Program-made: the position numbers and the translations under genes
Assembly (NCBI GenBank): GCA_964016885.1
Contig: OZ024745.1
Location: forward strand, 118,730,001 to 118,794,000
Direction of reading: 5' to 3'
Origin: Eledone cirrhosa
Lineage: Eukaryota
Length of the DNA: 64,000 nucleotides
Notes under the pieces: model-generated
Databases searched by the model: none
What the model was told of the DNA's origin: nothing
Seen by the model: the letters and a program-made list of their open reading frames with translations, nothing else
Shown here: positions 11,520 to 63,904 of the stretch, in pieces
Layout: each line of letters opens with the position of its first letter
Position numbering within the stretch: the first letter of the stretch is position 1

Positions 11520-11585
11520 TATTTTATCTGATGAAAGCGTACCAATGTTGTCTTGGTTTGCTCTTGAAATATATATAATAAAATA
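11520..11585 (+). ncRNA. Type I hammerhead ribozyme motif (family A)
   Basis: tattttat-CTGATGA-aagcgtaccaa..ttggtttgctctt-GAAA-tatata-TA-ataaaata: 8-bp stem I, stem II, palindromic stem III and an AUA triplet. Confidence 0.8.
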
Positions 11586-13459
11586 AATATGGTTTTATAA
11601 ATATAGTTTCCATTTATTTAATAATATCATTGATTATATATATATACACACACACACGTTTATATATATATACGTTTATATTAAATTTATTAATATTTCC
11701 TAAAGATTATTTATTTTCCACGTAGATCTGTTACAAATTCTTCAGTTTAACTGACATGTACATATAGTGAAGAGAGAGAGAGAGAGAGAGAGAGGTGAGG
11801 AAGTGAGAGGGGGAGAAAGAGGGAGATAGAGAGAAGAAACCAATAACAGCCATGGGTGGAATTGTTAACACATTAGAAAAAGGGAGAAAAAGGAATCTAA
11901 AGAGTCACAAACTGAAAATACAGAAATATTTGCCAGAAATTCTATCGTAGTCGAAACAACATACAGTATGTATGTATATATATATATAAGTTTATCCCGA
12001 CTTCAATCGGGGGTAACCACAATAAGTAAGGTACTCAATAGATAGAGTATAAATATTTGATATGGAAATGGTTTCTACAGGACTAGAACTGTTTCATTCT
12101 GGAAAATGATTTCTTCCGAATGAAACAGTTCTAGTCCTGTAGAAGCCATTTCTATATGAAATATATATATACACACATATATACACATATATATATATAT
12201 ATATATATATATATATACACACACACACATTTGGTAGGACAACGATCTCCTCTTGTCAGAGAAAGAGACACATGCGCGCGTGCGTAGAAAATATTAATAG
12301 AATTTCTTTTCTATTTTTTTTTCTTTCATTTTTCCATTCAACTGCTGCAGTTGTACCTTTGCTATTACTGCTAATATTAATGTGGTGCAATAGTAGACTG
12401 ATTATTACATAGTGTGCAATAACCTCATTGCATAAATTGCAACAGTTTCAGTTTTTTCTTCTTTTTTGCTTTGCTATCTGTCATAACTACAGCACACCCA
12501 CACAGTTCCGCACAGACATATACCCAGTTGCACTTTTAATTTTCTGACATCGCAATAAAATAGTAAACACACTCGTAATAATATCTATAGATTGAACTCA
12601 GTAAATTGAAGTTTTTAAGTTTTTCGACTAACTGTATTACATTTGTTAGAGTCTACCACACACACATATATATATATATATATATATATATATATATATA
12701 TATATATATATATATATATATATATGATAAACTAACACATGTGATATGTATGTATATATATAATGGTTTCTTATATAGGCACAAGGCCAGCAATTTGGGG
12801 AGAGGAGAAGTCGATTAAATCGACCCCAATGAGTGGCTGGTACTTTATTTTATCGACCCCGTAAGGATGAAAGGCAAAGTTAACCTAGGCGGGATATAAT
12901 GGTACACTAACACATGTAATATGCATATATCATAAATATATATATATATATATATATATATATATATATATATATATATATATATATATATTATTCAGTT
13001 GATGAAAGTTGGTTGATCAAAAATCTGCTGCCCTTTTCGTAAACAGGGATGAAGTACTCAATGATTTGTATTCCTGATGTATCATCCGGCGTTTTTGTAT
13101 AATAAATAAGAGAGACGGTTTTATTCGTACATCGTCAATTTATTACCTAATTTCATTATAACGAAGATGTACGAATAAAACTGTCTCCCTTATTTATTAT
13201 ATATATATATATATATATATATAACGAAGGAAATGTGGTAAGGAACCAGGTGGACCATAACGCACCAAAGTACTCAATACTTAGGGTAGTAGAGTGGGTA
13301 ATAGGAACGAGTAGGACCCCGACGGCTGAGCTCAAGCTGTTTCTGGTCCAGAATTAGCCGTCGGGGTCCTACTCGTTCCTATATATATATATATATATAT
13401 ATATATATATATATACAATGATATTAAATAAGTGGAAACTATATTTATAAAACCTTATT

Positions 13460-13521
13460 TATTCTATTATATATATTTCAAGGGTACCAAAAACTTTGGT
13501 ACGCTTTCATCAGATAAAATA
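13460..13521 (-). ncRNA. Type I hammerhead ribozyme motif (family A), left arm of a palindrome
   Basis: Reverse complement reads tattttat-CTGATGA-aagcgtaccaaa gtt tttggtaccctt-GAAA-tatata-TA-atagaata. Confidence 0.85.
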
Positions 13522-13568
13522 CAAAGTGTGTTTTATAAATTTTGACATAGCCAAGGAAACACACTTTG

Positions 13569-13630
13569 TATTTTATCTGATGAAAGCGTACCAAAGTTTT
13601 TGCTACCCTTGAAATATATATAATAGAATA
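13569..13630 (+). ncRNA. Type I hammerhead ribozyme motif (family A), right arm of a palindrome
   Basis: CTGATGA at 13577, GAAA at 13611, stem I tattttat/atagaata. Confidence 0.8.
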
Positions 13631-16600
13631 AATATGGTTTTATAAATATAGTTTCTATTTATTTAATATCATTGTATATATATATATATATATATATATA
13701 TATATATATATATATATATATATCCCACACTCACTAAGCGTGAAACTAATACTATTTGTAACATGTACTCCTGCGTTGTCTGTTTTTTGTATTCCGAACT
13801 ATATATAAACACGTTAGAGTCTTACAAATAGAGAATTGCAACAGTTAAAAACTTACGAGATTATTTTAACAAATCAATCAATCAATCGCGTTCCCGCAAC
13901 TGTTGTATCCAGTCGATTACACACACGTGTGTATGTAGTATATACGTAAATGTATGTGTATACACACACACACGAAGGGTTCGGGACCCCAACGGCTTAG
14001 CTCCTGTCGTTTTCAACAGCTAGATCTAGCTGTTGAAACTGTAGGACCTCAGCCGTCGGGGGCACCCGAATCCTATATATTACCCACTCTACTACCCCAA
14101 GTATCGAGTACCCAGGGGAGAAATGGTCTAACTGGTTTTTACTGCATCCATGGAGTAGTAGTATGGGTATATATCTATCTATCTATCTATCTATAGGTAT
14201 ATATATATGAGAGAGTAGTAGAATGGGTATATATATATGAGAGTAGTAGAGTGGGTATATATATTATATATATGAGAGAGAGGGGGGGGGGGGCATTATA
14301 TACGCCAAACCCGCAGCCAGGTTTTCTGCCAGGTAATGCCATTCGAATATATGTTAAAACATGGGGATGCCAAAACAAAATAAAGAAATATTGTTTAGTA
14401 AAATATATATATTATTCTTGTTTGATGGGGATGCCAAAACTAAATTTGCTTGTGATAGGAGATGCCGGGCATCCCCTGGCATCCCCTTGGCTACGGGCCT
14501 GATATACGCACATATAAAGCATGTAAGTGTATAGAAAAGAGAAGCGGGTGTAGAGGCTGGCAGACGAAATGAAACAATGTCAATGGAACAATTTTGCATT
14601 AGACATGAAATAATTGTTTCTACTTTTGGCACAAGGCCAGCTATTTCCCCAGTGTATTACTGTTACGGTGTCATTCCCCCAATTGGCTGCTTTTTTTTAT
14701 TCATTTATTTTTTTCTTCCTAACTTACACGTAGGAAAAAGTTGTTTACGTTAGAATAAAGACGAAAGATGTGAACAAATAACTTTCTCCGCGGTTTACTT
14801 ACAGAAATTAGGAACATATGGCATGGACCTCCCACAGTTTTGACGATGAGTGTTCCAGTTGTACAATCATGTAATTAATGTGTAAGTGGCTGAGCATTCT
14901 ACAGGCACGTGTATCCCTAAACGTAATCTCAGGGAGATTTACTGTGACATAATGTGTGATAAGGCGGGTCATTTGAATTACGGATACAAGGCCATCTGAC
15001 TGGCTTCGAAGCAATTTCGTCTACTCAGTTTCACTCACAAGGCATGGGTTGACTAGAGGCTATGTATGGTAAATGACACATTACCAAGATGCCACGCAAT
15101 GGAATCAAACCAGGGACCCAATGATTGCGAAGCGAAATTCTTACCAATTAGATCATACTGATTGCACTAGGATCATGTGAATTAATAGGAATTAAACCCT
15201 GACCCTTTCTAAAATATGGCATTCGTTATATCTCTGCATTGCATAATGTAAAAGGCAGCGTAAACGGTTTGGTGTGATGCTTCTGAGTTAAAATTTCCAT
15301 GAGTTTGAAATTGCCTTGCACCCGTCTAAAGTCGATAAAATAAATGGTGGGGACGATTAAAATTGATTAGTGAAAAATGCTTAGATTTGTGCTATTAAGA
15401 TCAATCCTGCCGCAAAATGTAGCTTTATGCTTATTGATAGAAATGAAGATTATATAACAGAAAGTACAATTGTTTGAGTATCGCACAAAATACGTTGTAG
15501 TTATTTGTAGCGTCTCTTTACGTTCAGAGTTCAAATCTCGCCGAGGTTTCCTTCGTTTTTCATCTTTCCGGGTTCGATAAAATAAAATATAGAGGTCGAT
15601 TTAATCGACTACTCACTACCATCAAATATCTTGCCTTGTGTCTGTATTGAATGGGAGAAAAAATACTTGTCAGCATTTATTCGTTTCAGACAACATCGAC
15701 TTAACCTTTAGTCAGTCTGGGCTCAACAAATTATGTACTAGACACGTAGTGGATTTATTAAATTGGCTACACCCATCCCTCAAACTTGCGAAAATGTATC
15801 AAAAGTGGAAATCATTATTCGTAACAGAAATATTATTAGCATATTTTCGTGAATGGGGGTCAAGTGTATCTCATGGCTGATAAGACAATATATCTTGGCT
15901 CTATTATTCAGGTCGCTGACTGAACATGTTTCAATTGCAATTTTCTCGGCAGCCCAGAGTCCCAGAATATATGACAAGCACATATTTCATACACTGGTCA
16001 AAGTATCAAGTTAGTTAAGTGATTATAAAGGAAGTAATTTTTTTTTTTTTAATAACCAACCACCACGTTTATTTTCATTTTTATTCGTAAGTATTTTTAT
16101 TATCGTTTATCTTAAAATTAATAAGGATTCAATGCAATGTGAAATTGTCATTGACAATTCATATTGTGACCTGAATAAAAAAAAACAACATTGTCAAATT
16201 AGTCAAATTCTTTCAGGTTGAGACAGTCACTCATAATTGACCAAATAGGGCGGTGGGTTGGCAGTATCGGTAGAACGTCCTACAAAATGTTTTGTTACAT
16301 TTTAGTTAGAGTCCTTTATGCTCTGAGTTCTAATATTTTGAAGGTCAGCTTGCCTTCCATCCTTCCAAGATTGATATAATAAAGTACCAGTAAAGTCGAT
16401 ATATTAGACTTTCCCTCTCCCACACAATTACTGGCCTTGTGTCTATATTAGAAACAATTATTGAATTAAAGGCTGCTTGAGTGACCGCATTAGATAAAAA
16501 ACAAAAATGTTTTGCGGTATTTAGTTACGACTTTCTACGTTCTGAGTTCAAATCCCGCCTTTCACTCTTCTGGGGTCGATAAAATAAAGTATCAGTTAAG

Positions 16601-63267: not shown

Positions 63268-63448
63268 ATAGTCAACATTCGTTATAACGAAATTCACGGA
63301 TTATAAAAAAATTCGTTGTAACGATAAATTCGTTATAACGAGATCGACCGAAAGAAATCGAGCGTTTGTTATTACCTAGGGGATTGAAAAAAATTTCGTG
63401 AAACTAAAAAATTTCGTTATAATGGTATCCGTTATAACGGAATTTATA
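63268..63448. mobile_element. Tigger/pogo-like MITE remnant
   Basis: Repeated palindrome (tt)cgttataacg(aa) near both ends and internally; TA flanks. Confidence 0.55.
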
Positions 63449-63581
63449 TATATATATATATATATATATATATATATATATATATATATATATATACATA
63501 TATATATATATATATATATATATATATATATATATATATATATATAATATAAGATCAAGAGATGGTTAAAGGAGTTCCATA

Positions 63582-63652
63582 TATTTTATTATGCGCATTT
63601 CAAAAACAAACATCATCAAACAATAATATTTGTGTTTTCATCAGATAAAACA
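63582..63652 (-). ncRNA. Type I hammerhead ribozyme motif (family B)
   Basis: Reverse complement is nearly identical to 31312-31382. Confidence 0.85.
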
Positions 63653-63839
63653 GGAGAACATGATATGAAGGCTAAAAAACACTTGTTGATAGTGCAGTTT
63701 TAAATCAACATATCACCTCCTACATATATATATATATATATATATATATATATATATATATATCCTGATGGCCTCCAAAAACAACGGTCAATTTTTAAAA
63801 GGGTACGTCAATGTCTATTGATAAAACTGTTATATATTG

Positions 63840-63904
63840 TATTTTGTCTGATGAAGGCATACCATAATGTAACTTGGTATCCTTGAAATATATATAATGA
63901 AATA
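63840..63904 (+). ncRNA. Type I hammerhead ribozyme motif (family A, divergent)
   Basis: tattttgt-CTGATGA-aggcatacca..tggtatcctt-GAAA-tatata-TA-atgaaata, followed by the same tail as the 11586 and 13631 copies. Confidence 0.8.

Follow-up and report, generated by a model that had tools for sequence, protein, structure and literature searches.

A 64,000-nt stretch of the Eledone cirrhosa genome (OZ024745.1:118,730,001-118,794,000, forward strand; hereafter the window) holds eight hammerhead ribozyme motifs of one architecture, here named H1-H8 (Table 1), which appear to be remains of Hydra-clade Penelope-like retroelements. Their CUGAUGA...GAAA cores were located by a regular-expression scan and by direct reading; together with an 8-bp stem I, they reproduce exactly the coordinates listed in an earlier note on this DNA. 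Each motif combines CUGANGA, GAAA and a NUH triplet with stems I and II, as expected of a type I hammerhead. In all eight, as that note had reported, the triplet is AUA, stem III is self-complementary (AUAUAUAU in four motifs, AUGCGCAU in three and AUAUGUAU in one), and the fourth position of stem II (10.4) is a C, opposite C in four copies and U in the other four. From the window and its genome-wide relatives, we moderately favor a reading in which the motifs are truncated Hydra-clade 3' ends carrying a type I hammerhead, cutting is predicted in dimers only, and C10.4 may help to dock stem II on stem I.

Table 1. Hammerhead motifs of the window and the islands that contain them (positions are those of the window; 10.4/11.4, fourth position of stem II and its partner).
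Feature	Position	Strand	Core start	Predicted cut after	10.4/11.4	Remarks
H1 hammerhead motif	11520..11585	+	11528	11577	C/U	stem II damaged
H1 island	11332..11640					inverted tail piece ~11332-11452, then forward element 3' end; 93% to both arms of L082 inverted insertion
H2 hammerhead motif	13460..13521	-	13513	13468	C/C	stem II cleanest within its lineage
H3 hammerhead motif	13569..13630	+	13577	13622	C/C	stem II with one additional mismatch
H2/H3 island	13416..13674					two inverted 5'-truncated 3' ends, one insertion within (TA)n; palindrome 13380-13710, 93%; 88-89% to L082
H4 hammerhead motif	31312..31382	+	31320	31374	C/U	belongs with ORF P0001 to the youngest family
H4 island	31220-31421					99% identity with both pseudo-LTRs of full-length L184
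H5 hammerhead motif	33713..33783	-	33775	33721	C/U	stem II pair 1 broken (G.A)
H5 island	33678-33840					88-90% to L128 ORF-linked ends
H6 hammerhead motif	48433..48499	-	48491	48441	C/C	without atgg
H6 island	48389-48554					96% to L122 ORF-linked end
H7 hammerhead motif	63582..63652	-	63644	63590	C/U	family shared with H4
H7 island	63552-63723					96-97% to L184
H8 hammerhead motif	63840..63904	+	63848	63896	C/C	
H8 island	63764-63944					98% to both arms of ORF-bearing L059

Two further descriptions held in part. The motifs had been placed in 150-300 bp islands between (TA)n tracts; the islands measure ~160-310 bp and lie between microsatellites, except at H4, where a short TA run gives way to a terminal (TG)n tract. 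Stem II had been said to pair despite its differing sequence, which is clean in H2, H4, H6, H7 and H8, whereas H1, H3 and H5 carry pair-breaking changes. A structure scan returned 11 hammerhead motifs in the window, three of them of other kinds, and none in each of 30 block-shuffled windows. Our search pattern matches the window 8 times, where the genome mean predicts 1.5 (Poisson P ~2e-4, or 9e-4 with H2/H3 counted as one), a density ~5x that mean. Rfam gave no match at the gathering score across the whole window; at E<=10, positions 63500-64000 (H7/H8) gave 23 matches, none of them to a hammerhead family. The eight motifs are not independent, since H2 and H3 form a single inverted insertion, and they fall into three main lineages (H1/2/3/8; H4/5/7; H6). 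Because of this small number of lineages, the window on its own is weak evidence for selection.

The eight motifs are almost certainly the 3' ends (pseudo-long terminal repeats, pseudo-LTRs) of 5'-truncated Hydra-clade elements inserted in (TA)n, a conclusion drawn from sequence comparison with full-length copies elsewhere in the genome. This point, missed in the earlier note, explains why the islands are short and flanked by (TA)n, why one pair is inverted and why copies are so numerous. We fetched 16 loci with a full open reading frame (ORF; L-numbers denote genomic loci) and anchored 15; nine of these 15 carry a motif in the sense of the ORF, 264-266 nt ahead of its ATG, with a second one 3.7-3.9 kb further on, and both upstream and downstream motifs are also present at L164. 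A full-length unit runs from a hammerhead through a ~210 nt leader, an 821-codon ORF encoding a reverse transcriptase (RT) and a GIY-YIG endonuclease, and a ~1 kb 3' untranslated region to the next hammerhead, and spans 3,660-3,895 bp in 9/9 measured cases. ORF P0001 lies ~1.07 kb upstream of an H4-type motif, and at loci with long inserts the ORF is likewise upstream of the motif. In L184, L059, L122, L128 and L082 we found element ends that match the window islands at 88-99% identity, the ORF link of L082 being less certain than the other four; L123, L131 and L169, where the link from ORF piece to nearest motif is uncertain, were not used.

P0001 carries RWT and DKT, and the L164 ORF RWK and DKT. 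By eye, P0001 and its relatives have a CxCx5C linker, CxxC, and CxH in the endonuclease, with no CCHH, which corresponds to the Hydra definition. The clade assignment rests on these motifs because no Pfam family was matched by P0001 or two sister ORFs. In a tree built with database homologues only, the E. cirrhosa RTs group with a protein labelled Argonauta hians (support 98/97). The best 150 genomic matches of a 200-aa ORF piece are all 99-100% identical, hence the H4/P0001 family is young. Of 267 candidates from a metagenome scan, none proved to be a relative with DNA context. The window itself contains no Hydra ORF pieces, and P0001 has no tblastn match there, which rules out the window's own Penelope-type RT pieces (29328-30686 and 59959-61084) as parents; the RT at 60.7 kb is further rejected because its relatives carry a different motif.

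The very high genomic density proposed earlier was borne out. A pattern for group 1, TTTTRTCTGATGA-N(20-42)-GAAAT, finds 69,822 exact matches across the 3.0 Gb of the genome; a reversed control finds 7. A relaxed scan revealed group 2 families with other stem I sequences (CUGC/GCAG and CUGU/ACRG), and a group 2 pattern blind to stem II has 13,524 matches. Together, the two patterns find ~83,000 motifs, or ~1 per 36 kb. L164 places the CUGC/CUGU-type families among Hydra elements too (RWK, DKT, CxCx5C). We make no claim for the constancy of stem I (UUUU, U2.3) because it was built into the search patterns.

We next consider the conservation of C10.4 among these copies. The base is absent from 3,046 of the 69,822 group 1 matches and from 408 of the 13,524 in group 2. 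Among 100 listed group 1 matches without it, the changes are spread over all subfamilies and are mostly C>T, a scatter expected from decay after insertion. When the stem I constraint was dropped, 2,989 non-C matches of like kind were obtained; of the 100 listed, one copy is paired at this position and looks unrelated. Within 91 copies unselected on this column, C10.4 is present in 85 and the position is paired in 2, and pairs 10.2, 10.3, 10.5 and 10.6 alternate between A-U and G-C or between U-A and C-G. Of 168 copies, we discarded 7 whose anchors were broken, assigned 131 to 20 subfamilies and kept 30 as singles; copies chosen for lacking C were masked at the C10.4 column. C10.4 is the majority base in 20/20 subfamilies, families with a different stem I included, and shows 0 changes on a flank-based tree, on which flank columns 2.9-2.12 change 3-7 times. 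Its partner 11.4 is C in 12 subfamilies, U in 6 and A in 2, with 5 changes (4 if one deletion variant is discounted). A set of 24 representatives was made up of 19 subfamily medoids plus 5 singles; none of them pairs 10.4 with 11.4, and all six other stem II pairs show two-sided changes, counted without regard to relatedness. RT identity between groups is 44-64%, endonuclease identity between the main groups is 41-55%, and their fourfold sites, few in number, are 11-47% identical, near saturation. The covariation around a conserved unpaired C that the earlier note had inferred from eight copies thus extends genome-wide and across deeply diverged lineages.

Mutation does supply a pair at this position. 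Variants with G-C at 10.4-11.4 number 321 and those with C-G 301, ~1% of copies, and in one subfamily (CUGAAGA-GGUCACAGCC) the hairpin-perfecting change C10.4>G occurs 69 times against 24 for the control C10.6>G, a 2.9x excess; yet no large lineage uses the pair. Hairpin-templated correction, a context effect or limited amplification are possible causes of the excess. In contigs of four sequencing runs, no 10.4 variant reached 5%. Collectively, the sequence comparisons suggest that C10.4 is very probably under purifying selection in source elements and not in dead copies.

It is also conceivable that the G of an ancestral C-G pair was lost in a single event and that the C has been unchanged since by chance. 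C10.4-G11.4 is the commonest state in the published Hydra hammerheads (PMC8557442), few deep lineages from a single genome were sampled, and A10.7-U11.7 is as constant as C10.4 among the 20 subfamilies (G-C in two rarer families). We nevertheless regard shared ancestry as improbable, given the low identity at fourfold sites and the changing flank columns described above, and C10.4 often lies within a CpG and mutates readily in dead copies.

A further set of observations concerns how the RNA would be cut and copied. In a tandem transcript, two motifs would pair through the palindromic stem III, cut after AUA and release unit-length RNA, while in single units cutting would be off and a lone motif would remain uncut. 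The predicted energy of stem III is -2.2 to -10.5 kcal/mol as an intermolecular duplex versus +4.7 kcal/mol as a monomer hairpin, and is favorable solely as a duplex; dimer-only activity is reported for palindromic-stem-III hammerheads of Penelope-like elements (PMC4209133). Judged from sequence, we think it likely that tandem transcripts pair and are cut in this way and that the lone motif stays uncut. The predicted cut lies ~213 nt before the ATG in the H4 family and 207 nt before it in L164. At L149:1505 (+), a hammerhead stands directly 5' of a second partial core and stem II copy, forming a local tandem.

The end points of 121 copies cluster at two distances behind GAAA, 40-69 nt in 73 copies and 140-169 nt in 30, so that (TA)n follows the motif at either fixed distance in 103/121. 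Inverted pairs have one short and one tailed arm in 15/18 cases, and the longer tail, an additional 90 nt, passes uninterrupted into the leader of the following unit's ORF. Every genomic copy examined spans the predicted cut site, and the start points lie 3' of it, which requires a template that is still uncut at that position or has been rejoined. Across L184-L195, pseudo-LTRs belonging to the same insertion differ on average at 0.6 bases over 132 nt, versus 4.1 between insertions, and in 8/9 cases a pseudo-LTR is closest to its own partner. Such near-identical pairs would be expected if both members were copied from a single segment of template, such as a circle, but are no proof of one.

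The finding that all examined copies span the cut site would also suit an explanation in which the mismatch merely weakens stem II, giving a slow ribozyme and uncut templates, with base identity incidental. Pairing 10.4-11.4 would stabilize stem II by 1.5-6.3 kcal/mol, and its partner is free to be C, U or A. However, U.U, U.C or A.C would then be expected as subfamily states, yet the 5' base is C in 20/20, and we consider weakening improbable as well.

The conserved unpaired C likely serves the fold or the control of the RNA. Its C.H 1x1 loop, three pairs from the core, would expose C10.4 for a base-specific contact with stem I, which would replace the loop-loop contact of canonical hammerheads. 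We favor docking because the loop sits where canonical contacts form (PMC3088659, PMC9217987). Beyond stem I, most of the 24 representatives have a predicted internal loop or bulge. As a model, docking of stem II on stem I by C10.4 is nonetheless tentative.

The earlier note had suggested an 'atgg' just after stem I as a possible partner of the C. It had been ascribed to most copies, which is true of the window (6/8) but not of the genome-wide representatives (10/24), and the first G is predicted to be unpaired in three representatives. The sequence is missing from the H6 group and from every CUGC/CUGU family retaining C10.4, and in 7 of the 10 carriers both Gs are predicted to be paired, in a distal helix. 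Pairing of C10.4 with a G of AUGG is therefore highly improbable, and in the docking model AUGG would not be the partner.

Alternatively, C10.4 may be a contact for the element's own RT-endonuclease protein, for recognition or chaperoning, instead of an RNA-RNA contact. The hammerhead of the Anolis Poseidon element cuts solely with the element's protein (PMC11167929); C10.4 persists through a complete change of stem I; and the C, paired with G, occurs in 16/26 published Hydra rows (by eye) as well as in a rare family here. Arguing the other way, the proteins are merely 44-64% identical, and the region proposed to bind protein in Anolis, within the ORF's first 172 nt, was not narrowed to a stem II base (PMC11167929). 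By our analysis, a protein contact would be a close rival of docking, although we find it doubtful. A constraint on the DNA (a promoter base of the pseudo-LTR, or a hairpin in complementary DNA) could draw on the report that pseudo-LTRs act as promoters for the next unit (PMC11167929), but G.U wobbles are frequent on the hammerhead strand (8/24 at 10.1-11.1) and amount to C.A mismatches on the opposite strand, and the bases flanking the C vary on both sides. We rate a DNA constraint as very unlikely.

Returning to the reading that combines truncated Hydra-clade ends, dimer-only cutting and docking by C10.4, several observations weigh against it. Single-copy folds of the eight motifs are mostly not better than shuffles (z -2.5 to +0.1). 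Loops are present on both stems, and among the representatives and subfamilies no stem I base stands out as a conserved partner of C10.4; stem I is wholly different between the two groups. The constancy of A10.7-U11.7 noted above equals that of C10.4. Zero changes at C10.4 compare with 4-5 expected, with P ~0.007-0.02, a post hoc value from a short-flank tree and parsimony, and the lack of a G partner among 4-5 partner changes is weak evidence for a required mismatch. Non-C variants, as well as a pair-breaking control variant, are seen in both arms of single insertions, so that one copying round may not need C10.4; dead copies are uninformative on a single-round need. In the Anolis element, the sole superfamily member tested in vitro (PMC11167929), the hammerhead needed protein and was dispensable for insertion. 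Lastly, a rare family retains C10.4 paired with G, and hence the C is better supported than the mismatch. Since C-G also stands in 16/26 published Hydra rows, C10.4 may predate the mismatch. Rare related motifs whose fourth position forms a pair (C-G or U-A) were seen at L167:459 (-), with three alike among the 100 listed, and at L163:2579 (-); no ORF was found near these two motifs, which are possible outgroups.

We then compared the E. cirrhosa elements with known systems. Palindromic-stem-III hammerheads in Penelope-like elements have been known since 2014 (Cervera and De la Pena, PMC4209133) and Hydra-clade hammerheads since 2021 (Craig et al. 2021, PMC8557442). With the Hydra clade, the E. 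cirrhosa elements share a single ORF for RT and C-terminal GIY-YIG with RWK/RWT, DKT, CxCx5C, CxxC and CxH, as well as (TA)n targets, a hammerhead near the 3' end and inverted truncated copies (PMC8557442). They differ in unit length (3.7-3.9 kb versus generally <3 kb, a typical and not strict figure) and in a stem II of 6-12 bp with C.H at 10.4, a state present in 0/26 published rows; wherever stem II has at least four pairs (25/26 rows, by eye), the fourth position is paired (PMC8557442). The clade listing includes one Octopus bimaculoides family, whose published motif is of another type than H1-H8 (PMC8557442).

With the 2014 Penelope hammerheads they have in common the type I topology, the pseudo-LTR site, a long helix II, the palindromic 15.2-16.2/loop 3 and the dimer type (PMC4209133). 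Both also show numerous covarying families within a genome, pairs on opposite strands separated by 100-700 bp, and a predominance of truncated single copies. Stem I is longer in E. cirrhosa (8 bp in group 1), and the consensus of the minimal hammerhead ribozyme (min-HHR; PMC4209133), with an extra base between 9 and 10.1 and with G10.1-C11.1, does not apply: the extra base is absent here, and 10.1-11.1 is G-C in 5, A-U in 8 and G.U in 7 of the 20 subfamilies. The helix II irregularities of that survey are single cases, namely a D. virilis bulge and, by eye, a fourth-position C.A in a sea urchin row and U.U in a fluke row (PMC4209133). As for Anolis Poseidon PAc (Frangieh et al. 2024, PMC11167929), shared features are two copy-start points behind the hammerhead, an optional tail that is the start of the next unit, AT-rich targets and uncut RNA as template. 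PAc belongs to another clade; the E. cirrhosa tail of ~90 nt lies within an untranslated leader, and the ORF begins ~210 nt after the cut site, not inside stem II as in PAc (PMC11167929). Animal non-LTR retrozymes (Li et al. 2026 preprint) likewise have short type I hammerhead repeats related to Penelope pseudo-LTRs. A non-LTR retrozyme was ruled out here, as the window has no tandem array of short monomers and the islands, with variable 5' ends, match ORF-linked ends.

In the literature we covered, which excluded figures and Luense et al. 2017, no description of a cephalopod hammerhead structure or of a conserved stem II C mismatch was found, and the main text of a 2026 octopus repeat paper contains neither 'hammerhead' nor 'ribozyme'. 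What is new is the conserved C and the ~83,000 motifs; the link between element and ribozyme was already known. The suggestion of a distinct hammerhead subclass can be kept for a lineage-specific variant, but this is a variant of the known dimer-type hammerheads of Penelope-like elements. A bolder proposal, that the C.C/C.U/C.A loop defines a Hydra-lineage subclass of its own and would act as an undescribed tertiary or protein-gated switch timing dimer cutting, spread to >80,000 copies, seems unlikely to us on sequence evidence.

The window contains other elements as well. Beside an assembly gap, an inverted duplication (19376-20398) holds two identical hammerheads of another type (19634-, 20140+), with a 5-bp stem II and an ACUAGU stem III. 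Hammerheads at 48157+ and 51219-51255+, the second damaged, have an ACC(U/A)CU(G/U)GU stem III and resemble the Hydra-1_oBim motif; motifs related to this type, with the fourth position fully paired, occur at L045, L057 and L125. Minimal-type cores with a paired stem II lie at 19217+ and 59517-, the latter directly downstream of a GIY-YIG piece (59959-60315) and an RT piece (60716-61084), both from a further abundant family of Penelope-like elements whose ORFs reach ~1,260 aa. A GC-rich fragment with Penelope-type RT and endonuclease side (28927-30686, -), from a third family, adjoins H4 on the opposite strand. Long interspersed nuclear element (LINE) fragments with RT and endonuclease, which we take to be RTE-like, are found at 5270-7018 (-) and 34064-34877 (-), together with many copies resembling short interspersed nuclear elements (e.g. 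49521-49894) and an 82-bp tandem at 54328-54794. Many short palindromes inserted between (TA)n tracts (for instance 12048-12169, 13098-13201, 33358-33604, 41221-41352, 50525-50664 and 51875-52005) are possibly inverted ends of other elements.

Hammerheads of Penelope-like elements cut poorly in vitro, and in the one reconstituted element cutting is protein-dependent and dispensable. In E. cirrhosa, the motif count is ~10x the largest figure of the 2014 survey, in which counts of ~4,000 and 9,000 were called remarkable (PMC4209133). Here, young intact tandem elements occur alongside at least five deeply diverged lineages in which both stems have changed and one unpaired C has been kept, and this offers a single-base test of a hidden tertiary contact versus a protein handle.

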